DNA of 64,000 nt from Flagellimonas sp. (GTDB lineage: Bacteria; Bacteroidota; Bacteroidia; Flavobacteriales; Flavobacteriaceae): the NCBI RefSeq assembly GCF_965601775.1, contig NZ_OZ271837.1:2374990-2438989 (forward strand), in the 5' to 3' direction. Positions 1-12,044 of the stretch are shown in pieces. Position numbers and translations under genes: made by a program. The notes under the pieces were generated by a model that was not told the DNA's origin, did not search any database, and saw only the letters and a program-made list of their open reading frames with translations. Numbering within the stretch: the stretch's first letter is position 1; each line of letters opens with the position of its first letter.

Positions 1-75
1 GTAAAATCCTAATTTTTAGTAGTATGAACAACCATTATCGAGTACCCAGTTCAACGGTAAGAAAGGAAATCGAGC

Positions 76-609
76 TTATTTTGGAATCTCTTCGTGAGAA
101 ATACTAGCTTCCACTTTTTTGATATCCGTAAACTTACCATACTTTTTTAATAACAAGGAAAGCTTGGGGGTAATATAGGTAGTACAAAATGGTTTATTGG
201 AATCCGTATAGTAATAGTTGTGGAACTGTTCCTCGGAAGGCTTAAACCTTTCAAAATGAGACACTCGAGTAATTAGCTTTTCATCGAATACAACATTTAA
301 CTCATCCAATATTTTGTTTGATTTTTCAAAATCGGCAGAGTTGAAGGCGTAAACAGCAGAACGGTATTTACCACGCATGGAGTGATTTGAAGTACTCTTA
401 TGGGTATACAAATGAATCTCTATTAGTTCCTTCAACGAAATTTTAGAGCTGTTGTATGAAACAATAACTGCTTCAGAAAATATGGATTCCTCTTTGGAGC
501 TGATAAATCCCTGTTCCACCTGAATTACATCCTTCAACGATAAAAAAACTGCCTCGGTGCACCAATGACACCCTCCTCCCAATCCAATTTTTTTGATTTC
601 CATTTTCAT
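76..609 (-). CDS. msrA: Peptide methionine sulfoxide reductase MsrA-like protein, divergent (GCHWC motif)
   Basis: GGGCHWCTEAVF resembles GCFWC; KYRSAVY and EEQFHNYY...PFC motifs. Start moved from ORF-track 675 to ATG 609 (or 603) because a terminator lies at 633-665. Confidence 0.8.
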   Translation of the reverse strand: MKMEIKKIGLGGGCHWCTEAVFLSLKDVIQVEQGFISSKEESIFSEAVIVSYNSSKISLKELIEIHLYTHKSTSNHSMRGKYRSAVYAFNSADFEKSNKILDELNVVFDEKLITRVSHFERFKPSEEQFHNYYYTDSNKPFCTTYITPKLSLLLKKYGKFTDIKKVEASISHEEIPK

Positions 610-632
610 TCTGCCTATTGCAAGGTACCCAC

Positions 633-665
633 AAAAAAGATAGAACCGAGAAAATCTCCCGGTTC
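633..665 (-). terminator. Intrinsic terminator just upstream of msrA
   Basis: Minus strand GAACCGGGAG-ATT-TTCTCGGTTC stem (9-10 bp with G-U pairs) followed by TATCTTTTTT. Confidence 0.7.
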
Positions 666-905
666 CATCAAACAAAACAACTTAAAAAGCACGACAACTA
701 AATCGCAACGCAACCTTGAGCATTGGTATCTAGTAGGTTACCGGATTCTTCAACCGATAAACCTATAGATTCCCAGTTGTGTAACCCTACTAGAGCATTT
801 GGCAACTGAGTTAACCAAAACTCTCTTGATCCAACTGGAAAATACAGCTATAGCAGTTGCTATAATTTTGTACGCTGAATACTTAGCTTTCTTACGCCGA
901 GTTTT
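633..905 (-). ncRNA. Candidate structured non-coding RNA or leader, family unrecognised
   Basis: 13-bp stem 729-741/781-794, crossing 9-bp stem 771-779/832-840, hairpin 849-864; ends in the 633-665 terminator; no convincing ORF. Confidence 0.3.
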
Positions 906-1020
906 AAAAGGAAAAAATGAAGTAAAACAAGGTGTTTGTAAATAATTATAAATCAAATAGTTATGTAGTCGTGATTTATTTATTTGATAGAAATGTTATA
1001 AAAATATGATATTTCCAAGC

Positions 1021-1104
1021 AGACTTTGGATATCAGACATCAGACATCAGACATCAGATATAAGATATCAGAACTTTAGACTTTGGACCTTTAGCTTTGG
1101 ACCT
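1021..1104. repeat. Degenerate heptamer tandem array (about 12 units, AGACATC/AGACTTT/GGACCTT type)
   Basis: agacttt ggatatc agacatc x3 agatata agatatc agaactt tagactt tggacct ttagctt tggacct; abuts the nudK stop codon at 1105. Confidence 0.9.
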
Positions 1105-1683
1105 TCAAGAAAAAAGTCCATTCAACTTGGCGTATTGCAGTAACATAATAGTCTTGGCATCACGGATTTCTCCTGTAACCATCATCTGCCATGCTTGAGT
1201 AAAAGGAAGTTCCAGCACTTCAATATTCTCAGTTTCATCCTCAGCGCCACCACCTTCACTCACTTTCATATGGTCTTCATACTCCCCAATAAAAAAGTGT
1301 AAAATCTCGGTTACGGAACCTGGTGACATATAGGATTCAAATACTTTCTGGACCTTGTCTATTTGATAACCGGTCTCCTCTTCCACTTCCATTTTAATGG
1401 TTTCTTCGGCATTGCCCTTTTCCAAGATTCCAGCACAGGCTTCAATCATCATTCCGTCGGTATTCCCATTCAAATAGGTGGGCATTCGAAATTGACGGGT
1501 AAGCACCACGGTTTGCTTTTTGGTATTATACAGCAGGATTACCGCCCCATTGCCCCTATCGTAAGCCTCACGGATTTGGGTTTCCCATTGCCCATCTTTC
1601 CTTTGATACTCAAAGGTTACCTTGTTCAGCGAGTACCAATTATCTGAAAGCAATTCTTTTCGAATATTCCGCACTTTACCCAT
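1105..1683 (-). CDS. nudK: Nudix hydrolase, GDP-mannose pyrophosphatase NudK (YffH/AdpP family)
   Basis: [21 protein letters not shown], Nudix box AGILE...[15 protein letters not shown]. Confidence 0.9.
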
Positions 1684-2038
1684 TTGCTTCAGGTATTTCG
1701 TCCAAGTCGTAATAAATTTTCAATCCTAGTTCCCTTGCAACCTCAACATCTTGGTCTGCACCCTTGGATGCTCCTTCAATACGAAGAATAGCATCGCACT
1801 TAGTCAGCAGCCTATGGGCCGTGGGATATTGCAGTTCTTGAAACACTGCATCCCCTATTTCTTTAGAGCCCGCCAATTTCATCAATGGATTTGCCACCCA
1901 TTCACCAATCATGGGTACATGTCCTTTTCGAAAAATAGGTAGTGCCATCGCCTCCAGGTTATCCATATTTTGCTGAATCAAAACCGGGTCATTCCCCGTT
2001 CCACTTCGATACGGACCGGCAATCATAATTAGCATCAT
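1676..2038 (-). CDS. DUF4406-like protein (nucleoside deoxyribosyltransferase-like fold)
   Basis: [28 protein letters not shown]; overlaps the nudK start by 8 bp. Confidence 0.7.
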
Positions 2039-2047
2039 CGCTTTCGT

Positions 2048-2079
2048 TTTACCAAAGAAACAAATTTGTTTGCGGTAAA
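2048..2079. promoter_or_regulatory. Palindromic putative operator upstream of DUF4406-nudK
   Basis: Perfect 14-bp palindrome AAACAAATTTGTTT (2058-2071) nested in TTTACC...GGTAAA, 10 bp upstream of the start codon. Confidence 0.45.
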
Positions 2080-2092
2080 CTCTTAAGATAGT

Positions 2093-2707
2093 TTAAGACC
2101 CTATCCTGTTTTTGACCGTGCTTAAAAATTCTGGGGTCACCCCCAAATAGGAGGCTATTTGTTTTTGGCTGACCTTTTTCACGATTTTCGGATATTTTTC
2201 CAAAAAACGGAGATATCTTTCTTCCACGGGACAGGAAATGGCATCTAAAACTCGCTGTTGCTCGCGCACATAAGCTCTTTGATACAAAATTCTGAAGTAC
2301 TTCTCCATTTTAGGTAAGGTAAAGAGCATTTTCTCAAGAGCTTCTGAATCAATTTCAAAGAGCAAACTGTCATCCAAAGTTTCTAGGGAAATACTGGCTG
2401 CTTGTTCATTCAAGAAAGCCCCCATATCGGTAATCCACCAATCTTCCACAGCAAACATTATAGTTGATTCCTTGCCTTCTAAATTGGTATGAAAAGCCCT
2501 TACACTGCCTTGCTGCACAAAATAAAATCTTCTGCATAGGTTCCCTTGTTGCAAAAAAAGTGTCTTTCTAGGCCGACGGGTAACATTGAAAAAACCTAAT
2601 ACCAAATTTTCCTCATCAGCACCGAGGTCTACGTGTTTTCGAATATTTGAAAACAACAGATTTTTTGAAGACTTATCTGGAAAATCATTTTTTATGCCAT
2701 CATCCAT
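2093..2707 (-). CDS. Crp/Fnr family transcriptional regulator
   Basis: cNMP-binding core (FVQQGSVRAF...FAVEDWWITD), C-terminal HTH SQKQIASYLGVTPEFLS; start uncertain (2728 or 2707). Confidence 0.85.
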   Translation of the reverse strand: MDDGIKNDFPDKSSKNLLFSNIRKHVDLGADEENLVLGFFNVTRRPRKTLFLQQGNLCRRFYFVQQGSVRAFHTNLEGKESTIMFAVEDWWITDMGAFLNEQAASISLETLDDSLLFEIDSEALEKMLFTLPKMEKYFRILYQRAYVREQQRVLDAISCPVEERYLRFLEKYPKIVKKVSQKQIASYLGVTPEFLSTVKNRIGS

Positions 2708-2738
2708 AGCGGGTGGAAATAATAACATTTATTGGAAA

Positions 2739-3392
2739 TTATAAAAAGACGGCCTGATTCAAGTATCGCCTAAAAGGTAGCATTTCCAAGTATACCTCCT
2801 TTATTTTCTCCTTAAAATCAGGTTGAAGCACCTCTGCTTGGTCCAATTCATGGACGACGGCAAAAGTTTTGTTCTTGAGTAATTCGATATGGGGATGTTC
2901 TTTGGTAAATCCCTTGGGAGGATTTCTTAGTCTTTCGTCTTCGTAAAGTTCACCGAATAGTTCTTTAAACTTTGGCTTATCCAAAATGGCTTGAAATTCT
3001 TCTCCGTCGTAGTCGATCCCATCACGAATGCTTCGCAACACTTTAGGTTCTGGTCTCCAAAAGCCTCCAGCCAAAAGGCATTGCTTTACGCCTACCTCAA
3101 TATAAAAATCAGCAGAACCGGGTGCCTTGTCTAATCCAGCTCCAAAATGGTCCTTATAAATGGGTTTATGGGGATGGAACATAAGGTTGTTGTTGATTCT
3201 ATTTATCCCCTTTTTACCCGGAGTGGGGTAATAATCCTCATCCAATTGGGCCATGGTATAATCCAAATCGTCCAACCAGAGAATAAAATCTTTCCGAAGG
3301 GAGGTATACCATTTTCGATTGGCATCCATCCATTCTTTGGTGTTGTTTTGCTGTAATTGTTCTAGGAAGTCGAAGAGCTCTTTAAAGTTCAT
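2739..3392 (-). CDS. DUF2461 (TIGR02453) family protein
   Basis: FLEQLQQNNTKEWM..NRKWY, INRINNNLMF, PIYKDHF, LKNKTF. Start set to MNFKELF at 3392; the ORF-track extension runs through the repeat array. Confidence 0.85.
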   Translation of the reverse strand: MNFKELFDFLEQLQQNNTKEWMDANRKWYTSLRKDFILWLDDLDYTMAQLDEDYYPTPGKKGINRINNNLMFHPHKPIYKDHFGAGLDKAPGSADFYIEVGVKQCLLAGGFWRPEPKVLRSIRDGIDYDGEEFQAILDKPKFKELFGELYEDERLRNPPKGFTKEHPHIELLKNKTFAVVHELDQAEVLQPDFKEKIKEVYLEMLPFRRYLNQAVFL

Positions 3393-3396
3393 GTTT

Positions 3397-3438
3397 TTGA
3401 ATGCTCGATGTTTGGTGTTTGGTGTTTGGTGTTTGGTG
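3397..3438. repeat. Heptamer array downstream of the four-helix-bundle gene (TTTGGTG x4 plus 2 degenerate units)
   Basis: ttgaatg ctcgatg tttggtg x4; minus strand reads (CACCAAA)4 CATCGAG CATTCAA and fills the gap between the stop at 3445 and the next ATG at 3392. Confidence 0.9.
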
Positions 3439-3444
3439 ATGAAG

Positions 3445-3807
3445 TTATAGTTTATTTCTAAAAGCAATAATCATATTCATCAACTTAAAACAATCATCAT
3501 ACAGTGCTGAAAAACTAGTAGATGAGATATATTTTCTATGATTGGCTGTGTGCAAACAGGTAACTACCTCGGCCAATGACCTAGCAGAATATCCCAAAAA
3601 CCTCCGGAATTCGGGCTTAGATTGTACTATGGAACCTTCTGAGATATTTAATGCCACAGAATCAACCGCCCGACATATTTGAGAGGTCAAGTTAAATCTT
3701 TCTTTGTCAGGAAAGTTATCGGCTATTCCGACCACCGCTTCGCCAAGTTTCATGGCATCCTTCCATATATGCAACTTCTCAAATTTGAATTTGGGTAGGC
3801 CTTCCAT
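3445..3807 (-). CDS. Four-helix-bundle protein (TIGR02436 / 23S rRNA IVS protein / Avd-like fold)
   Basis: FEKLHIWKDAMKL...FPDKERFNLTSQICRAVDSVALNISEGS..QSKPEFRRFLGYSARSLAEVVTCL; 120 aa from ATG 3807. Confidence 0.9.
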   Translation of the reverse strand: MEGLPKFKFEKLHIWKDAMKLGEAVVGIADNFPDKERFNLTSQICRAVDSVALNISEGSIVQSKPEFRRFLGYSARSLAEVVTCLHTANHRKYISSTSFSALYDDCFKLMNMIIAFRNKL

Positions 3808-3829
3808 AAGCAGATAAAGATTTGGAAAG

Positions 3830-3837
3830 CAAACATA
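3830..3837 (-). promoter_or_regulatory. Bacteroidetes housekeeping -7 promoter element for the four-helix gene
   Basis: Minus strand TATGTTTG matches TAnnTTTG, 22 nt before the ATG. Confidence 0.55.
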
Positions 3838-3853
3838 CAATATTCGTAGCTGA

Positions 3854-3981
3854 GCCTCTAGCATCTAGCACCAGACCCCAGACATCGATCATCAGACCTC
3901 AGACTTCGGGCATCAAACTTCAGACATCCGACATCCGACACCCAACTCCCCAACCATCAACTCAAACACCCAATTCATCAA
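3854..3981. repeat. Degenerate heptamer array upstream of the four-helix-bundle gene (about 17-18 units, GACATCA consensus)
   Basis: gcctcta gcatcta gcacca gacccca gacatcg atcatca gacctca gacttcg ggcatca aacttca gacatcc gacatcc gacaccc aactccc ... Confidence 0.9.
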
Positions 3982-4044
3982 TTGCCTACTCCGCTGTAAA
4001 TCAATTCGTAGCATCTTGAAGTTTTAACTATAAACGCTTAAAAA

Positions 4045-6447
4045 ATGAGCTGCAAAAAGATTTTTCATTGTGTACTTTTCCTATTGATTGTCATGTCCTG
4101 CGGCAAGGACGATGAACCTTCCCTTCCCCCTGAACCTGAAAACAATGCCCCTACCATGGAGGCCCAAACCCTGTCCGCAGCAGAGGATGTGGCCCCAGGC
4201 AGCAAGATTGGGGACATCAGTGCATCTGATGAAGATGGAGATGCGCTTTCCTTTGCCCTGAGTGGCGATTCACCATTTGTACTTTCGTCAGATGGCAGTC
4301 TAAGCTTGGCCGAAAACCAAAACTTGGACTTTGAGGCCGCAACAACCTATGCGCTGAGCGTTACCGTGAAAGATACCGAAAATGCAACGGCCTCAGCCAC
4401 GGTGACTGTTAATGTGACCAATGTAAATGAGCCTCCAGTTTTTGAAAAAGAGTCCTTTGAATTTATGCCAGACGAGGATATTCTACCTAATACACCTTTA
4501 GGTGCAGTAACCGCCACCGACCCTGAAAATGATGAAATTGAGTTCAGTATCAGTGCGAATGACAATGATCTCTTTACTATTGATCCCGCTACTGGAACCA
4601 TTAGCCTGGCCGAGAATAAGACCTTGGATTTTGATACCGTACCTGAACATACCATTACCGTGACCGCCGATGACAAAAAAGGGGAAACAGCAGTCGTCAA
4701 TGTAGGTATTGGATTGATTAATGTCAATGAATCTCCTGTATTTGGCCAAGAAGCTTACAATTTCGAAGTGAGCGAAGGCACTCCCGAAGATTCTTTTGGT
4801 TCTGTAAGTGCGGAGGACCCCGACGGCGATTCTGTAATCTACGAGATTATTGTAAATCCCTATGATTTGTTTGTGATCAACCCCGAAACTGGGGGCCTAA
4901 GTTTGGCCGAAGGCCAGAGTTTGGACTTTGAGGCCTTTGAGGGTGCAGAACCAGTGTATACTCTGACCGTACAGGCAAGCGACAGTGAAAACATGCCTCA
5001 AAAGGAGGTGACCATCACCGTATTGGACGTCAACGAAGCTCCTGTATTGACAGGCCCTACTAGTTTCAATGTCAATGAGAACATTCCGGATACTGAAGTT
5101 TTTGCTACGCTTACGGCAGAAGACCCGGAAGGAACCAATGTAACCCTAACACTTACTGACGATGCCGAAGGTGTTTTTGAAATGACAGGGGAAGGAAATA
5201 TCAGTCTAGTCAATGGACAGCTATTAGATTTTGAACAACAACCCAACTCCTACGAGATAATTGTGCGGACAAGCGATGGTACAAATGAATCAGACCATAT
5301 AATTGGAATACAAGTCCAGAATGTGAATGAAACTCCTGTGGTGGAAGACCAACAGATAGACATTGAAGTAGTGGAATCCATTAATCATGTAGTAAATATT
5401 GCTCAAATCGTAGCATCAGACCCTGATGGTGATGAAACCCTAAGTTTCGATATTTTGGGCAACAACACATTATTTGAGGTTGATGGTAACGGAATTGTAA
5501 GCCTCATTGATGGCCAAAACTTGGATTTTGAAATGATGCCTAACCTAGGGGTCACGATTCAGGTAAGTGATGGTGAGTTTGAACTACAAACCCAGATAAA
5601 TCTAACCATAACTGATTCTTTTGCCGATGAACTTACACCTTATGTTACTACTTGGCGAACTACAAATCCTAATGAAGAAATCAGAATTCCTACTACAATC
5701 GGCCTTGATACTTACGATTTTATGATAGACTGGGGGGACGGTACTTTGGAAGCTATTAGTTTTATAGGAAATGATATTGTTCCCCATGTGTTTGAAAATC
5801 CAGGAACCTATACCGTAGCAATAATCGGTGATTTTCCAAGGAGTGAAGCAGCCAGTCTCAATAATGCATTCTCCGAGAAACTAATGAGTATCGAACAATG
5901 GGGGAATATCGAATGGTCAAGTCTTGTGACAGGTTTTCAGGAATGTGTGAACATGGAATATCACGCGACCGATACACCCAATTTAATAAACGTGCAAAAT
6001 ATTGATAATCTATTCTTCGAAGCTCGTTCTTTTAATGGAGATTTGAGTAACTGGGAAACTGAAAACATAACATCAATGAACAATGTATTTAGAGGTGCGG
6101 ATGTGTTTGAGGGAAACGGACTAAGTACTTGGAACACTGAGAGTGTAGATAGCATGAACGGAATGTTCCGTTTTGCATCTTCCTTCGACCAGAATTTAGG
6201 AAATTGGAATATCCAAAATATTACTTCGATGGAGGTGCTGTTCTCAGCATCAGGAATGTCTCCCGAAAATTATTCACAAACTTTGATTGGTTGGGCTGCT
6301 CAAGCCCCAAATATCCAAAACGGCGTAATCCTCGATGCTTCGGGTATCGAATACTGTAATACTCCAGAGGTATTGGCCGCTAGGGATATCTTGGAAAACA
6401 CGTATGGATGGATCATTACCGATGCTGGACCAGTCGATTGCAATTGA
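4045..6447 (+). CDS. Surface lipoprotein with five cadherin-like repeats, a PKD-like segment and a BspA/DUF285 repeat domain
   Basis: Lipobox IVMSC; five ASDxDGD/ATDPE...LDFE...NVNE units; IDWGDGT; FNGDLSNWETENITSM-type DUF285 repeats. Confidence 0.85.
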   Translation: MSCKKIFHCVLFLLIVMSCGKDDEPSLPPEPENNAPTMEAQTLSAAEDVAPGSKIGDISASDEDGDALSFALSGDSPFVLSSDGSLSLAENQNLDFEAATTYALSVTVKDTENATASATVTVNVTNVNEPPVFEKESFEFMPDEDILPNTPLGAVTATDPENDEIEFSISANDNDLFTIDPATGTISLAENKTLDFDTVPEHTITVTADDKKGETAVVNVGIGLINVNESPVFGQEAYNFEVSEGTPEDSFGSVSAEDPDGDSVIYEIIVNPYDLFVINPETGGLSLAEGQSLDFEAFEGAEPVYTLTVQASDSENMPQKEVTITVLDVNEAPVLTGPTSFNVNENIPDTEVFATLTAEDPEGTNVTLTLTDDAEGVFEMTGEGNISLVNGQLLDFEQQPNSYEIIVRTSDGTNESDHIIGIQVQNVNETPVVEDQQIDIEVVESINHVVNIAQIVASDPDGDETLSFDILGNNTLFEVDGNGIVSLIDGQNLDFEMMPNLGVTIQVSDGEFELQTQINLTITDSFADELTPYVTTWRTTNPNEEIRIPTTIGLDTYDFMIDWGDGTLEAISFIGNDIVPHVFENPGTYTVAIIGDFPRSEAASLNNAFSEKLMSIEQWGNIEWSSLVTGFQECVNMEYHATDTPNLINVQNIDNLFFEARSFNGDLSNWETENITSMNNVFRGADVFEGNGLSTWNTESVDSMNGMFRFASSFDQNLGNWNIQNITSMEVLFSASGMSPENYSQTLIGWAAQAPNIQNGVILDASGIEYCNTPEVLAARDILENTYGWIITDAGPVDCN

Positions 6448-6489
6448 TATAGAAAAGCAAGTATTTTGGTTTTAAATTGATTTTGATTT

Positions 6490-6524
6490 AAAGCACCGTC
6501 GGTCTTGACCTATGGTGCTTTTTT
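6490..6524. terminator. Terminator between convergent genes
   Basis: AAAGCACC...GGTGCTTT inverted repeat followed by a T run. Confidence 0.7.
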
Positions 6525-6531
6525 ATGTTTG

Positions 6532-7329
6532 TTAGAAACCATTATCCCCCATGACCATATCGCCTAGGCCACCCAAAATACTTCCTTCCCCTTTATCTTT
6601 TCCACCTCTTGGGACAGCAGCCAAAACTCTTCCAGCCAGTCTGCTAAAGGGTAAGGATTGCACATATACCGTTCCTGGTCCTCGTAGGGTTGCGAAAAAG
6701 AGTCCTTCACCCCCGAAAATAGTATTCTTGATGCCTCCTACAAATTCGATATCGTAATTCACGGTTTGGTCAAAACCTACAATACAACCGGTATCTACCT
6801 TGAGTACTTCGCCGGGAGCTAGTTCTTTTCGCGCCAAGGTGCCTCCTGCATGTACAAAGGCCAAACCATCGCCCTCCAACTTTTGCATGATAAAGCCTTC
6901 ACCTCCAAACAGGCCGCGGCCCAATTTCTTCGAGAATTCAATCCCGACAGAAACACCTTTGGCCGCACAAAGAAAAGCATCTTTCTGGCAAATAAACTTA
7001 CCGCCTATTTCAGATAAATCTATGGGAACTATTTTTCCGGGATAGGGAGAAGCAAAGCTTACTTGCTTTTTTCCTTGGCCCACATTCAAAAAGGCCGTCA
7101 TAAACAAACTTTCCCCTGTGAGCAAACGTTTACCCGCTGAGAACAATTTGCCCAATACTCCAGAATCTTGACCGGAACCATCTCCAAAAATGGTATCCAT
7201 TTTAATGTCGGTGTCCATCATCATAAAGCTTCCCGCTTCGGCTACCACTGCTTCTTGGGGGTCGAGTTCAATCTCGACATATTGCATTTCTTCCCCATAA
7301 ATTTCATAGTCTATTTCGTGTGCGTTCAT
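6532..7329 (-). CDS. TIGR00266 / AIM24 family protein
   Basis: [57 protein letters not shown]. Confidence 0.9.
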
Positions 7330-7412
7330 TTTTTGATTTTTAAGATTCGATATATTGGTGAGCTAATTCGATATTTTGTTACAGTCTTATTGGCTTGCGA
7401 CACCCCTAAAAT

Positions 7413-7434
7413 AAAAAAACAGCCCTTTGGGCTG
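7413..7434 (-). terminator. Intrinsic terminator after the yegP-like gene
   Basis: CAGCCC-AAA-GGGCTG followed by T7 on the minus strand. Confidence 0.6.
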
Positions 7435-7464
7435 CTCTTTTATCTTTTCGGAGTGAATTACATT

Positions 7465-7794
7465 TTAAGAGTTATCCACTACGTCAGCATCAGGAGCGTT
7501 TTTCTTAACAGAGGCTATTCCGTTTTCCATGGCGTCATTTGAAGAATACATTTCACTCTTTCCAATAATTTGACCATTGGTAGCCGTAAGCGTAAAGAAA
7601 GGGCTTCCATCTTTAGCCGTCTTGCGATCAAAACGCGCATCGTCCTGTGAATTCTTTTTTACAGACTCAATACCATTTTTACATCCATCCTTGCTCTCAT
7701 AGCTTTGACTGGTCAATATTACTTGCCCATTACCTGCTTTAAGATTGAACATGGTTTTACCTGAGCTTCCTGTTTTAATTTCGAATTTTCCCAT
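7465..7794 (-). CDS. YegP family (DUF1508) protein
   Basis: Tandem FNLKAGNGQVILTSQSY / FTLTATNGQIIGKSEMY...ENGIASVKKNA repeats. Confidence 0.9.
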   Translation of the reverse strand: MGKFEIKTGSSGKTMFNLKAGNGQVILTSQSYESKDGCKNGIESVKKNSQDDARFDRKTAKDGSPFFTLTATNGQIIGKSEMYSSNDAMENGIASVKKNAPDADVVDNS

Positions 7795-7935
7795 TTTGGT
7801 GTTTAATTTCTAATTAGTGTATAGTTAATGCTGAAATTACTAAAAAAATGGGTTTTCTTATGCTTTGTTCGCTGAAACCCACCATTTTGTTTCTTTTTTT
7901 AAGACACACTTGTTTTTAAAAGGTCACAAGCCAAA

Positions 7936-8391
7936 CTATTTTTTTAGCCGGATAGTCCATTCAAAGTTAAAAGTTGAAACCTCAATACCCTCTTCATTAA
8001 CGCCTACCGATTTCATCCAAAATTTCTGGCCTTCTCCGGTTTCGATGGTTTTTTGGATGGCATCCGCAATCAAATGACCGTCCTCGCAGGTGAAGGTAAT
8101 ACGACCTGTTGCTTTCTTTCCAAAATAGGCGTTGTTATTTTGAACCAACATGGATATTTTCCGTCCACTTTGTTGAATTTGGTCGATGACCATAGCACCC
8201 GTGCTCAGCTCCGCAGCCATGCCTTGAACCGCCCAAAACATACTTTTAAAAGGATTTTGATTCACCCATTTATGCTTTACCGTGGTAACGGCTTTTTTCT
8301 CATCAAGATATTTAAGTCGAACCCCGCACCACCATGCTGATGGCAATTTAAAAAAAGTAAACGTATTGAATTTACTGGGAGTCGCAGCCAT
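7936..8391 (-). CDS. DUF4442 hot-dog-fold thioesterase-like protein
   Basis: KLPSAWWCGVR, NQNPFKSMFWAVQGMAAELSTG, FGKKATGRITFTC. Confidence 0.8.
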   Translation of the reverse strand: MAATPSKFNTFTFFKLPSAWWCGVRLKYLDEKKAVTTVKHKWVNQNPFKSMFWAVQGMAAELSTGAMVIDQIQQSGRKISMLVQNNNAYFGKKATGRITFTCEDGHLIADAIQKTIETGEGQKFWMKSVGVNEEGIEVSTFNFEWTIRLKK

Positions 8392-8464
8392 ATCTTAATT
8401 GTTTGAAGGCTAAAAATAGGGAAAATAATTCGAGATATAAATGTTAATAATATGTTAATTTATA

Positions 8465-8506
8465 GTACTTTGTTTTGCATAGTACCATCTTTTGGATATA
8501 TATTTG
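8465..8506 (+). promoter_or_regulatory. Promoter (-33 TTTG 8474-8477, -7 TATATTTG 8499-8506) with an overlapping GTACT-N11-AGTAC inverted repeat, putative PadR operator
   Basis: Consensus Bacteroidetes spacing of 21 nt; the palindrome straddles the -33 element upstream of an operon containing padR. Confidence 0.55.
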
Positions 8507-8561
8507 CATCGTAAGCTAATGGGTAAACCCATATAATTGTTAAAAATCATCAATCAAAAAC

Positions 8562-9044
8562 ATGGCAGCTACATTAACCAAACATGAGAGAAATTTGTCG
8601 GCAATCATACATGCCTCCACTTTTTCGAAGTACTTTATTCCTTTCGGCAACTTCATATTTCCATTGATTTTATGGACGGCCAATAAGAAAGAATATGAAT
8701 TTGTGGACTATAACGGAAAGCAGGCCCTTAACTTTCAAATTAGCATGTTGTTGTACTCCGTAGTGGTAAGCTTAATCACCATACCATTCTTTATCGGATT
8801 TCTGCCTGACCTTTTCGATTGGAATTTTTTAGGAATTCATCGCCTAAGTGATCTCAATAATCTAAACATCCATATCAGCAGTGACGACTTCAGATTTGGA
8901 CGCTTGTTTTGGCCCGCAGGTATTTCGGGTTTATTGCATGTAGGTTTGGTTATCATTAATGTGGTATATACCATATTGGCAACCATTAGAACCAATGAAG
9001 GGCAAACGTTTAAATATCCGTTGACCATTAAATTCATCAAATAA
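8562..9044 (+). CDS. DUF4870 membrane protein
   Basis: HASTFSKYFIPFGNFIFPLILW, GKQALNFQISMLLY, FKYPLTIKFIK. Confidence 0.85.
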   Translation: MAATLTKHERNLSAIIHASTFSKYFIPFGNFIFPLILWTANKKEYEFVDYNGKQALNFQISMLLYSVVVSLITIPFFIGFLPDLFDWNFLGIHRLSDLNNLNIHISSDDFRFGRLFWPAGISGLLHVGLVIINVVYTILATIRTNEGQTFKYPLTIKFIK

Positions 9045-9165
9045 GTATATAAAGGAGTTTATTTATCAATCAAAAAACGAATCATCAATTAAATCATCAT
9101 CAATCAACAACAAATTGAATCATCAATTAAAAAACGAACAGTTAACAAAATAGAACCATGACGAT

Positions 9166-9495
9166 ATGAACATAGAAAACACAAAAGCGCAAATGCGAAA
9201 AGGGGTTCTAGAGTACTGTATTCTGTCAATATTAAAGGATAGTGATAAATACGCTTCAGAAATTCTGGGAGCGTTAAAAGATGCCAAGATGCTAGTAGTG
9301 GAAGGCACCATTTATCCCTTATTGACCAGACTTAAGAATGCAGGACTACTGAATTATCGCTGGGAAGAGTCCACTTCCGGACCTCCCCGAAAGTATTATG
9401 CACTCACGGAAACGGGACATCTGTTCTTAAACGAACTCAACGGTACCTGGGATGAACTAAGAAATGCAGTAAATCTGGTAACCAACACAAAATAA
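9166..9495 (+). CDS. PadR family transcriptional regulator
   Basis: QMRKGVLEYCIL, VVEGTIYPLLTRL, WEESTSGPPRKYY. Confidence 0.92.
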   Translation: MNIENTKAQMRKGVLEYCILSILKDSDKYASEILGALKDAKMLVVEGTIYPLLTRLKNAGLLNYRWEESTSGPPRKYYALTETGHLFLNELNGTWDELRNAVNLVTNTK

Positions 9496-9503
9496 CATCA
9501 ACA

Positions 9504-11234
9504 ATGAACAAAACAGTAAATATAAATTTAGCGAACACGCTCTTCCACATAGACGACGACGCTTACAACAAGTTGAGGCGCTATTTGGAATCCATAAAAC
9601 GTTCCTTTGACGGAACTGCAGGGAGCGATGAAATCATTGCCGATATAGAGGCAAGGGTTGCCGAGCTTTTCTTGGAAAAAATGGAGAATGAAAGGCAGGT
9701 AATCACACACAAAGAAGTAGATGCGGTAATTGCCGTAATGGGTCAGCCAGAAGACTATATGGTAGACGAAGATATCTTTGAGGACCAACCTAGAAGAAAA
9801 GAAACATCCACCAGACGGACCAAAAAACTGTACCGGGATATTGACCAAAAGTATATTGGTGGGGTATGTGCTGGATTGGAACACTATCTTGGCATAGATG
9901 CCTTGTGGATTCGTTTGATTTTCATCCTATTGGCCGTTTTCACCGGTTTCGGACTTATTGCCTACATCCTGTTGTGGATTTTGGTACCTGAAGCCGCCAC
10001 AACCTCCCAAAAATTGGACATGACGGGGGAGCCCATCAACATCAGCAATATAGAACGCAAAGTTAAAGAGGGGTTTGATGATGTTGCGGACACGGTAAAA
10101 AATGTTGACTACGAACAAGTGGGCAACAAGGTCAAAAGCGGCTCCAAGACCTTTTTCGACACCATAGGTGAAATCATTGTGTTCTTGTTCAAAGTGTTTG
10201 GCAAGTTCATTGGCGTACTTCTTATCATTATTGGTGCATCCACACTAATTGGATTATTTATAGCACTATTTACTGTCGGTATGTTCAATGCGGTGAATTT
10301 CCCAGGAGTGGATTTCTACGAGATTGTGAACACCACGGGAGCTCCAGTATGGTTGGTTTCACTGTTAATGTTCTTTGCCATTGGGATACCTTTCTTTTTC
10401 CTGATGTATTTGGGCTTGAAGATTTTGGTTAACAACCTGAAATCCATAGGTAACATTGCCAAGTTCTCCTTATTGGGACTTTGGCTGATCTCCATCGGAA
10501 CCTTATTTGCCCTTGGGGTTAGACAAGCAGCTGAGTTTGCCAATGTGGGTAGCGTAAATGTTAAGGATGAATTGGTCATGGAAAATCCATCAGACACCTT
10601 GGTCATTAGAATGAATAATTCCGCTTTCGATTACGACCGTGGAGATGTACACTTTGGACGTATGACCTTTGCCTACGATGAGAATGATAAACGTTTCCTG
10701 CTTTCGGATGATGTTCGGTTCAAAATCAGAAAATCAGAAGATAGCCTAGTCAAAATCAACATTAGAAAAGATTCTCATGGAAGCACTACCGTTAAAGCCA
10801 GGGAACGGGCAAAGAATATTAATTACGGATATGAATTGAATCAGGGAGAGGTGGTCTTGAACGACCACCTTACCACTGACCTATCCAACAAAGCACGTGA
10901 TCAAGAAGTTACTACCACCATTTACATTCCTGCTGGAAAAGTAATTCATGTGGATGAATCAACTTACGGACATGTGGGAAGGGGCATTAAAAATGACCAA
11001 AACTATTATCGAAGTGGGGTTGTGGACCATCTTTGGATCATGGGTGAGGACGGTGAACTTAAATGTCAAGACTGTCCAGAAGACGAATCTGTTGATGAAG
11101 ATGAAGAAGGAGGAAAGATTATCATTGACGGAGATGGAGTGGATATTGACATAAAAGACAATTCCGATTCATTCAAAATGAAGATAGACGAAGACGGCAT
11201 CCAAATTAAGGCAGGTGAAAAGAATGACAATTGA
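9504..11234 (+). CDS. PspC domain-containing membrane protein (Bacteroidetes long form)
   Basis: MNKTVNINL...IIADIEARVAELF; PspC core KKLYRDIDQKYIGGVCAGLEHYLGID..WIRL; several TM helices; C-terminal CQDC and acidic tail. Confidence 0.88.
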   Translation: MNKTVNINLANTLFHIDDDAYNKLRRYLESIKRSFDGTAGSDEIIADIEARVAELFLEKMENERQVITHKEVDAVIAVMGQPEDYMVDEDIFEDQPRRKETSTRRTKKLYRDIDQKYIGGVCAGLEHYLGIDALWIRLIFILLAVFTGFGLIAYILLWILVPEAATTSQKLDMTGEPINISNIERKVKEGFDDVADTVKNVDYEQVGNKVKSGSKTFFDTIGEIIVFLFKVFGKFIGVLLIIIGASTLIGLFIALFTVGMFNAVNFPGVDFYEIVNTTGAPVWLVSLLMFFAIGIPFFFLMYLGLKILVNNLKSIGNIAKFSLLGLWLISIGTLFALGVRQAAEFANVGSVNVKDELVMENPSDTLVIRMNNSAFDYDRGDVHFGRMTFAYDENDKRFLLSDDVRFKIRKSEDSLVKINIRKDSHGSTTVKARERAKNINYGYELNQGEVVLNDHLTTDLSNKARDQEVTTTIYIPAGKVIHVDESTYGHVGRGIKNDQNYYRSGVVDHLWIMGEDGELKCQDCPEDESVDEDEEGGKIIIDGDGVDIDIKDNSDSFKMKIDEDGIQIKAGEKNDN

Positions 11235-11321
11235 GCCTATCAATACAACAATTGAGTAAAATCAACTAGCAAAACAAAAAAGAAAACAACAAATTTGATC
11301 AATCATTAAAAGAAAACAATC

Positions 11322-12044
11322 ATGACAACACTAGCAAGAATCGCAATCGCAGTTATACTGGCTATTTTGGCCTCTTCCTGCAATTTTGACATCAACTTCG
11401 GCAACGGAAAGAAAGGAAACGGCGTAGTTGTAGAAGAAACCCGAAATATTTCTGAGGATTTCACTGCGGTTTCCGCCGCGGAAGGCCTAGATGTATTTGT
11501 TACCCAAGACAACGAATTTAGTATTTCGGTTGAAGCGGACGAAAATGTAATCGACCTTATTGCTACGGATATTAGGGATGGAAAACTGCGTATACATACG
11601 ACCGAAAATATAGGAAGGGCGACCAAGAAAATCTATGTTTCTCTACCTCAAATTGATAAATTGAGCACCTCTAGTGGAGCGGACTTAATAGCGCAAAACG
11701 TAATACGTACGGATAAATTGGAACTTGATGCCAGTAGTGGTTCTGATTTACATGTTGAACTCAGTGCTTCTGAAGTGGAAGCGGATGCGAGTAGTGGAGC
11801 AGATATCAAATTGTCGGGAAGAGCGGATATGCTTTATGTAGATGCCAGCAGTGGTGCAGATATTAGAGCTCGAGAGTTGGAGGTTAAAAAATGTAACGCA
11901 GAGGCCAGTAGTGGCTCGGATATCTCAGTTAATGTTTCAGAATCCTTGATTGCGGACGCCAGCAGCGGAGCTGATATTTCCTATACAGGAGAAGCCAGCG
12001 TCCAAAAGAAGAAATCAGTTTCGGGAAGCGTGCATAAATATTAA
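11322..12044 (+). CDS. Head GIN domain (DUF2807) lipoprotein
   Basis: Lipobox LASSC; repeated ASSGADI/ASSGSDL beta-helix motifs. Confidence 0.88.
   Translation: MTTLARIAIAVILAILASSCNFDINFGNGKKGNGVVVEETRNISEDFTAVSAAEGLDVFVTQDNEFSISVEADENVIDLIATDIRDGKLRIHTTENIGRATKKIYVSLPQIDKLSTSSGADLIAQNVIRTDKLELDASSGSDLHVELSASEVEADASSGADIKLSGRADMLYVDASSGADIRARELEVKKCNAEASSGSDISVNVSESLIADASSGADISYTGEASVQKKKSVSGSVHKY

Follow-up and report, generated by a model that had tools for sequence, protein, structure and literature searches.

A candidate hairpin-armed four-helix-bundle gene cassette in Flagellimonas operon junctions with likeness to 23S rRNA intervening sequences

Introduction

Why is a small gene enclosed by two arrays of degenerate heptamers that face in opposite directions? 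The question is raised by a gene for a 120-residue four-helix-bundle protein (positions 3445–3807, minus strand) in a stretch of 64,000 nucleotides from Flagellimonas sp. (contig NZ_OZ271837.1, positions 2,374,990 to 2,438,989; referred to below as the window). A first, sequence-only reading had regarded the gene and its arrays as a selfish or regulatory cassette whose protein binds the heptamers and which inserts between genes with the help of a factor acting in trans. The answer that we favor, with moderate confidence, is a hairpin-armed cassette in operon junctions that resembles an intervening sequence (IVS) and is the counterpart of those IVSs of 23S rRNA genes that bear an open reading frame (ORF).

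Results

The family assignment of the protein was examined with profile hidden Markov models. The 120-residue protein was matched over its full length by PF05635 (23S_rRNA_IVP; 104.9 bits with a curated cut-off of 33.8, E 3e-30) and by TIGR02436 ("four helix bundle protein"; 98.5 bits with a curated cut-off of 24, E 2.5e-28). It carries the family motif Q..R...S...N..EG, tested as G/Q..R...S...N..E, in the form TSQICRAVDSVALNISEG. The solved relative nearest by sequence was XCC0516 (PDB 2GSC, E 4e-15), and 2RLD was also matched. From these family and PDB sequence matches the protein is predicted to adopt the four-helix-bundle fold. The ratio of nonsynonymous to synonymous substitution rates (dN/dS) was 0.17 among the orthologues at the same junction and had a median of 0.09 in the genus. 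The protein is under strong purifying selection, and the low median indicates that it is functional.

On the upstream side of the gene, lag-7 identity and Tandem Repeats Finder (TRF) revealed 18 degenerate heptamers in one unbroken 7-nt register (positions 3853–3978, minus strand). Read on the gene strand, this 5′ arm runs GGGTGTT..GGATGTC GGATGTC..TGGTGCT AGATGCT and is G-rich and C-poor; its plus-strand consensus is R-A-C-N-Y-C-N. The lag-7 identity of 0.61 compares with 0.30 in shuffled sequences (z 7.8), none of 5000 shuffles reached it, and TRF reported periods of 7 and 21 with 71–78% matches. The downstream or 3′ arm (positions 3399–3444, minus strand) consists of a core at 3409–3438, found by TRF as (TGTTTGG)x4.3 with 100% identity and reading AACACCA on the gene strand, and of degenerate units (AACATCG, AGCATTC); read on that strand, the arm is poor in G and rich in C. 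The 52-nt gap (3393–3444) between the stop codon of the gene (3445–3447) and the ATG of the following DUF2461 gene (3390–3392) is occupied by this array for the most part, not entirely as had been stated. Both arrays contain RACAYC on opposite strands, that is, they are inverted. When the upstream flank was aligned locally to the downstream flank in reverse complement, the gene ranked 13th among 3531 genes of the genome, and the best pairing between the arms was ATGATCGATGTCTGGGGTCTGGTG against ATGCTCGATGTTTGGTGTTTGGTG. The two arrays and their shared, inverted consensus, both described in the sequence-only reading, were thereby confirmed.

Contigs of 31–34 nt composed of pure (TGTTTGG)n were present in all four sequencing runs (X1–X4) at a depth well above that of the flanks. 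This suggests length heterogeneity of the downstream array in culture or an unassembled source. In run X4, which is DNA-like (15–36x over window positions 1–12000), no contig covered 3613–4038, with flanks at 29x and 37x and no joint reported. A second array, (ATCAGAC)x5.9, lies at about 1032–1072 (within 1031–1105) and belongs to the unit class of the upstream arm. It is directly followed by a (CTTTAGACTTTGGAC)x2.2 repeat in a spacer without a four-helix-bundle gene, and extra pure-repeat contigs were found for it.

The inverted layout was not confined to the window copy. The genome contains six PF05635 copies, each with low-complexity repeats upstream and their reverse complement just downstream, and each with a unit of its own, for example GAAAATG/TTTTCCA, GAGTTAA/AACTCAT or AAGGTAAAAG/CTTTTACCTT. 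The ranking covered 3531 crudely called genes, and in each the upstream flank was aligned to the downstream one in reverse complement. Ranks 4, 13 (the window copy), 20, 32 and 118 went to the five copies that had been called, and the remaining top-ranked matches were plain operator-like palindromes. Genome-wide RNAduplex energy was also tried as a pairing statistic and was dropped in favor of the alignment ranks, since base composition and long loops governed its values and left it without discriminating power. Among 83 arrays of period 7, 14 or 21, four had an inverted partner within 700 nt, and three of these four enclose PF05635 genes. In this genome the inverted layout is specific to the PF05635 family.

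The sixth copy lies between an atpA-like and an atpG-like gene (C1:13790–14071); it has an in-frame TGA and has kept its GAGTTAA/AACTCAT arms. The only gene-less inverted heptamer hairpin of the genome, (CAATNNN)x5 and (NNNATTG)x4 around a 17-nt loop, is found just upstream of an argininosuccinate-lyase-like gene (C1:3368996–3369070) and folds at −20 kcal/mol.

Taken by themselves, heptamer arrays are a broader phenomenon, which the sequence-only reading had not covered. In the 3.94-Mb genome, TRF found 19 arrays of period 7 with a score of 50 or more; at periods 6 and 8 it found none. The arrays are nearly all intergenic and mostly solo, and many abut a start codon. Arrays of the TAACTGA class are present as well, and perfect arrays of AGACATC, the unit of the window's upstream arm, occur with up to 17 copies at five other sites without a PF05635 gene. 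Solo heptamer arrays are a known genome-wide intergenic feature. Heptamers (ACTGTTA ACTGATG ACTGACA ...) were also seen between tRNA-Ile and tRNA-Ala in the spacer of rRNA operons (C1:1174844–1174879 and 2942284–2942319).

To assess how general the gene-plus-arms layout is, copy number was determined in 41 genomes of the genus, and flanks were compared at 120 loci from 40 relatives, to which the six copies of this genome add up to 126. Copy number varied from 0 to 11 per genome, with two genomes having none. At the 120 loci, cognate flanks had a median complementarity of 23 compared with 15 for non-cognate pairs. Scores of at least 22, the 95th percentile of the controls, were reached by 60% of the cognate pairs and 5% of the controls. 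Seven was the best lag in 65 of the 120 upstream and 75 of the 120 downstream flanks, compared with about 11% of control spacers. The heptamer enrichment and consistent inverted orientation that had been anticipated for homologues are thus present. Nearly all copies (121 of 126) are co-oriented with both neighbors, the median spacers are 43 and 39 nt (arms of about 40 nt), and the whole unit measures about 440 nt.

In base composition the arms are opposites, with G abundant (25%) and C scarce (8%) in the 5′ arm and the converse in the 3′ arm, a polarity that holds in 26 of 29 lineage-site groups. It is identical when read on either strand and therefore cannot discriminate between a role in RNA and a role in DNA. 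Within lineages, own arms paired better than arms taken across orthologues (63 versus 36, p 0.002), and complementarity has therefore been maintained, not merely inherited. The two arms co-evolve. Arm sequence as a signature of the protein clade across sites was rejected; the trend was faint (mean arm score rising from 29 to 33.5, rho 0.04). Single arms can expand strongly, as in L013 (G006), where a 3′ arm of (TCTGAAC)x17 stands opposite only three 5′ units. The 3′ arm of L078 (G003) has at least eight CATCAAC units.

Outside the genome, homologues were sought with a single-protein query. Flavobacteriia, Cytophagia (Reichenbachiella) and Bacteroidia (Prolixibacteraceae, Tenuifilaceae, Perlabentimonas) yielded nineteen with 60–79% identity; in most of them an array of (GGAAGNN)n or (GATGNNN)n lies upstream of the gene and a complementary one downstream. 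A tblastn match on an Azospirillum lipoferum plasmid lies inside a 23S rRNA gene, as judged by an Rfam LSU match. Its ORF is flanked by CAGAGGA CGGATGA CAGAGGA upstream and by TCCGTCC TCTGTCT TCTGTCA downstream. Because this ORF lies inside 23S rRNA between complementary heptamers, a genuine rRNA IVS shares the design: the same gene and the same arms. The link to 23S rRNA IVSs, which the sequence-only reading had drawn from the fold, is substantiated by this case. A cyanobacterial homologue (L237, Nostoc sp. PCC 7120 plasmid gamma, 580–930) adjoins an ISL3 transposase gene; it has a C-rich array downstream (CTTCTGC CCTCTGC ...), and its upstream repeat, ACTTCAA, is direct, not inverted.

The history of the cassettes was followed at three junctions across the genus: fadB–fadA, thyA, and the junction from a TIGR00266-family gene to the DUF2461 gene. 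At fadB–fadA, the flanking thiolase is 93–97% identical in most genomes, with two outliers at 77%. The spacer is empty (1–3 nt) in seven genomes, including this one. Twelve genomes have a gene-less heptamer hairpin of 50–85 nt, of two kinds, and one has an element resembling repetitive extragenic palindromic (REP) sequences. Cassettes occupy the junction in the remaining genomes; their proteins are of three types, and each type has arms of its own. Explaining these states takes 15 changes on the fadA tree, which comprises 30 genomes, and sister genomes with good support are not alike in state. One of the two hairpin kinds has a 13-mer, CAAGAATCAAGAC, and a 3′-arm motif in common with the cassette that its host genomes (G016, G052) carry at the next junction.

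On the protein tree, one clade was found at most sites, which indicates vertical descent after insertion, and several sister clades occupy different sites. The fadB–fadA junction (site S2) requires at least three label changes on this tree. By this reconstruction, at least two separate, unrelated cassette lineages have occupied it, and probably a third. With protein types P16 and P4 (L176, L180, L182, L185, L194), the end of the upstream gene reads cgcaacTAG and, together with the TTGCG after it, forms a 14-nt palindrome, CGCAACTAGTTGCG; in the other genomes it reads agaaatTAG. Since the gene ends differ, the left border of the cassette may overlap the last codons.

Genomes lacking the gene at thyA still have the final ~20 nt of its ORF together with the 3′ arm, and at some filled loci a cassette stands beside such a remnant. 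The juxtaposition points to decay followed by re-colonization. The DUF2461 junction was readable in 22 genomes of the genus, and the gene is present in five of them, one copy having an internal stop. Three genomes have spacers of 3–42 nt there, and about a dozen others have gene-less inverted heptamer hairpins. Filled and empty alleles thus occur among the relatives, so the gene is not vertically conserved at this locus in all of them. A discrete cassette that is gained and lost between genes, as had been proposed, is what these alleles show. Array copy number varies between orthologues. In all, the turnover of junctions among the empty, hairpin-only, remnant and filled states outpaces the divergence of species. 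REP-like elements of the GTCATTTCGAGCGCAGTCGAGAAATC and GTCATTCTGAACGAAGTGAAGAATC types were seen inside the loops of gene-less hairpins at the DUF2461 junction (L014, L017, L019, L020, L022, L028).

A further point not recognized before is that the window copy is atypical. The DUF2461/TIGR02453 gene (2739–3392, minus strand; identified by hidden Markov model and junction comparison), which lies downstream, is the conserved anchor of the junction across the genus. In four relatives (G012, G024, G021, G002), the 5′ arm of the orthologous cassette directly follows the stop codon of the TIGR00266-family gene. In the window, a divergent gene for a cadherin/DUF285 lipoprotein of 800 residues on the opposite strand (4045–6447, plus strand) stands between the cassette and the TIGR00266-family gene (6532–7329, minus strand), which is followed by an ordinary terminator hairpin. 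The lipoprotein gene would cut the 5′ arm off from transcription of the operon. Between the upstream array and the ATG lies TAtgTTTG (3837–3830, minus strand), a Bacteroidota-type −7 box at the position given in the sequence-only reading. By consensus it is a putative promoter, and the stretch around it, ATATT(G)TATGTTTG, is kept upstream of the closest orthologues (L156/G044, L037, L039). Because the lipoprotein gene is interposed and the cassette has this conserved box of its own, the upstream arm is probably a cut-off relic at this copy that is no longer co-transcribed. The earlier view that a promoter of its own leaves the upstream array outside the gene's mRNA holds at this locus. Of the two arrays here, the 5′ one is long and degenerate and the 3′ one has stayed perfect.

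A 9-bp direct repeat, ATTCGTAGC, brackets the upstream array (3842–3850 and 4004–4012), as had been noted. By our own estimate about 0.1 such 9-mer repeats are expected within ~250 nt, which is not significant alone. The repeat was rejected as a target duplication for want of support in the orthologues, and it is probably due to chance. The G012 orthologue of the gene (L015, G012:C5:77046–77360) has an internal TAA stop, with both arms kept.

Discussion

The observations can be combined as follows. The cassette would comprise a G-rich heptamer 5′ arm, the PF05635 gene and a complementary C-rich 3′ arm, lodged between co-oriented genes. In the polycistronic transcript the arms would pair and loop out the ORF, and RNase III would cut the stem, as it does in rRNA IVSs. 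The host operon would thereby suffer little from the insert, and the 3′ arm, through its A-rich end, may supply a fresh initiation region for the downstream gene. The protein would serve as the element's own maintenance or propagation factor, and the gene-less hairpins would be derivatives without the gene. At the window locus, the lipoprotein gene would have been interposed later; the gene would now run from its own TAtgTTTG promoter, and the 5′ array would be a stranded relic. A wider claim is tentative and, in our judgment, doubtful: that PF05635 genes with inverted heptamer arms form one widespread class of self-propagating hairpin cassettes that colonize transcribed junctions. The classical 23S IVSs would be copies in rRNA helices, the gene-less hairpins non-autonomous derivatives, and the protein would work with host enzymes to insert or retain the hairpin.

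Several results weigh against the IVS-like cassette. Looping-out and cleavage by RNase III are what we infer from the precedent of the Coxiella rRNA IVS (PMC4990558): no RNA-seq run of the organism turned up, its four runs (X1–X4) being DNA as judged by their uniform depth, and a search with a relative's locus returned only metatranscriptomes holding 6–8% of the sampled words. At the window locus, the RNA duplex between the arms is no better than in dinucleotide shuffles (z −1.3), and significance therefore rests on the alignment rank and the family-wide pattern; the upstream arm, moreover, is probably outside the gene's own mRNA. Sense-strand G.U wobble was considered as a signature of selection at the RNA level, and the result was the opposite: arm mismatches comprise 62 of G.U type and 107 of A.C type in sense RNA, with an expected ratio of about 0.9, and the antisense strand gives the more stable duplex at 86 of 126 loci. 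The test thus lends no support to the RNA model. Recent movement within the genome was not seen among its copies, whose arm repeats differ and which are only 17–35% identical to the window copy. Filled fadB–fadA sites have no target-site duplication when compared with the empty sites of 1–3 nt, and gains could be due to homologous recombination of flanks, not to transposition. No recombinase was found, nor an RVT_1 reverse transcriptase in the whole genome, and the factor that had been proposed to act in trans was not identified. A link to defense systems or phages was also considered and rejected, with no PADLOC and no phage hit.

Among the alternatives, an element acting at the DNA level survives best, and we regard it as unlikely. 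The arms would be terminal inverted repeats, or hairpins in single-stranded DNA or cruciforms, for a recombinase encoded elsewhere, and the gene-less hairpins would be like MITEs (miniature inverted-repeat transposable elements). The arms are oriented as in such repeats, since on either strand the G-rich sequence points inward, and the 13-mer and 3′-arm motif common to gene-less hairpins and the neighboring cassette in G016 and G052, as well as the repeated colonization of one junction, speak for this reading. The missing wobble signal in sense RNA, with the opposite strand pairing better if anything, also fits. However, the target-site duplication is lacking, and no candidate enzyme is linked to the cassettes. 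The arms differ between lineages in one genome, so a single enzyme in trans would have to act on ends without a common sequence, and the co-orientation with host transcription (121 of 126) is unexpected for a DNA transposon. A classical transposon with terminal inverted repeats, or a MITE, was rejected on the same two counts: there is no duplication, and the ends are not shared between copies.

Replication slippage is a less probable explanation still. In that case the arrays would be ordinary intergenic microsatellites of the type of short tandemly repeated repetitive (STRR) or TAACTGA sequences, the gene would merely live there, and the inverted layout would have no function. Such repeats are in print (PMC4679880, PMC4692102). 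Period 7 is strongly over-represented genome-wide (19 arrays at the score threshold of 50, compared with none for periods 6 and 8), most arrays are solo and adjoin start codons, five other sites have perfect AGACATC arrays without the gene, and the duplex energy at the window locus is not significant. Against slippage stand an inverted pairing that is almost exclusive to PF05635 genes and highly enriched at their flanks, and arms that co-evolve within lineages, with the G-rich arm consistently the 5′ one. The arms are, furthermore, gained and lost together with the gene at junctions that otherwise measure 1–3 nt, and the design recurs in an rRNA IVS.

Least probable of all is a host regulator that binds the arrays as operators in DNA or RNA and controls translation or stability of the neighboring cistrons: strong purifying selection (dN/dS 0.09), arrays that abut the neighbors' stop and start codons, and the binding of nucleic acids by Avd members of the fold speak for it, but close species differ in whether they have the gene at a housekeeping junction, a genome can contain anything from no copy (two genomes of the genus) to 11, AGACATC arrays occur without the gene, and across sites the link between arm sequence and protein clade is weak. 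That the protein binds the heptamer lattice, as the sequence-only reading had proposed, appears weakly disfavored because arm sequence tracks protein clade so faintly (rho 0.04).

A single answer could serve three questions: where rRNA IVSs come from and how they move, a problem of some thirty years' standing, what PF05635/TIGR02436 does, and what intergenic heptamers mean. The family is very large and is annotated in databases only as "four helix bundle protein", and intergenic heptamer repeats are abundant in Bacteroidota, cyanobacteria and xanthomonads. Because filled, empty, hairpin-only and remnant alleles occur naturally in the genus at identical housekeeping-operon junctions, these questions can be tested at the bench. 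If the arms do shield the operon against its insert of 440 nt, nature would have supplied a design that is useful for intercistronic cargo.

Relation to known systems

Avd is a small basic nucleic-acid-binding protein of the four-helix-bundle superfamily, to which the window protein also belongs. The connection to diversity-generating retroelements (DGRs) that the sequence-only reading had drawn from this fold did not hold. A DGR has an adjacent reverse transcriptase with template and variable repeats (DGRs are reviewed in PMC10053308), whereas RVT_1 has no match in the entire genome and the gene stands alone between housekeeping genes. No sequence-level match to Avd structures was obtained, and no template or variable repeats appeared in the flanking ORFs that were read, in which no search aimed at them was made. 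An identity as the Avd of a DGR was rejected on the absence of a reverse transcriptase.

REPIN/RAYT systems and insertion sequences with their MITEs likewise have hairpin units with and without a small gene, and in this genus, too, arm motifs are common to gene-less and gene-bearing copies. Unlike these, the cassettes have a protein without a known catalytic fold, arms that are not common to the copies of the genome, and no identical multicopy elements.

The arrays themselves agree with intergenic heptamer microsatellites, being tandem 7-nt units in spacers with variable copy number. The TAACTGA repeats (MacGregor 2015, PMC4679880), the cyanobacterial STRRs and the GGGAATC repeats of Xanthomonas (Rehm 2015, PMC4692102) are also 7-nt tandem arrays between co-oriented genes, often abutting start or stop codons and of variable copy number. 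The GGGAATC repeats, which include 70–75 convergent pairs, even obey the same strand rule, with a sense strand that is G-rich after the stop codon and C-rich before the start codon. No gene family is linked to the published repeats (PMC4679880, PMC4692102), whereas here inverted pairs enclose PF05635 genes and are gained and lost together with them. A full-text literature search returned no paper that links PF05635 genes to inverted heptamer arrays outside rRNA. For the gene-plus-arms unit outside rRNA no earlier description was found; IVS ORFs and heptamer arrays were already known.

The closest counterparts are the ORF-bearing 23S rRNA IVSs of Leptospira and Coxiella burnetii (in the latter the S23p IVS). 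The window cassette differs from them in several respects. It lies at a protein-coding operon junction, with the DUF2461 and lipoprotein genes as neighbors, and not in an rRNA helix; it is therefore IVS-like, not an IVS. Excision by RNase III has been shown for rRNA IVSs, including that of Coxiella burnetii (PMC4990558), and is proposed by analogy for the present cassette, which was read from its sequence. The Coxiella ORF is decaying and apparently untranslated (PMC4990558), whereas the genes of this genus are under strong purifying selection, and the arms consist here almost wholly of degenerate heptamers. The likeness extends to the essential parts. Both kinds of element encode a PF05635-family protein from an ORF between complementary termini, which form a long stem in the IVSs; in the window the complementarity is seen in the rank of 13 among 3531 genes and in the family-wide pattern, with a stem that is degenerate at this copy (z −1.3). 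Both have tandem heptamers in the 5′ part with a copy number that varies, in the IVSs between strains, and IVSs of ~430–450 nt (PMC4990558) are close in size to the unit of about 440 nt. The G-rich 5′ arm and C-rich 3′ arm are likewise common to both, as confirmed in the rRNA IVS of Azospirillum lipoferum.

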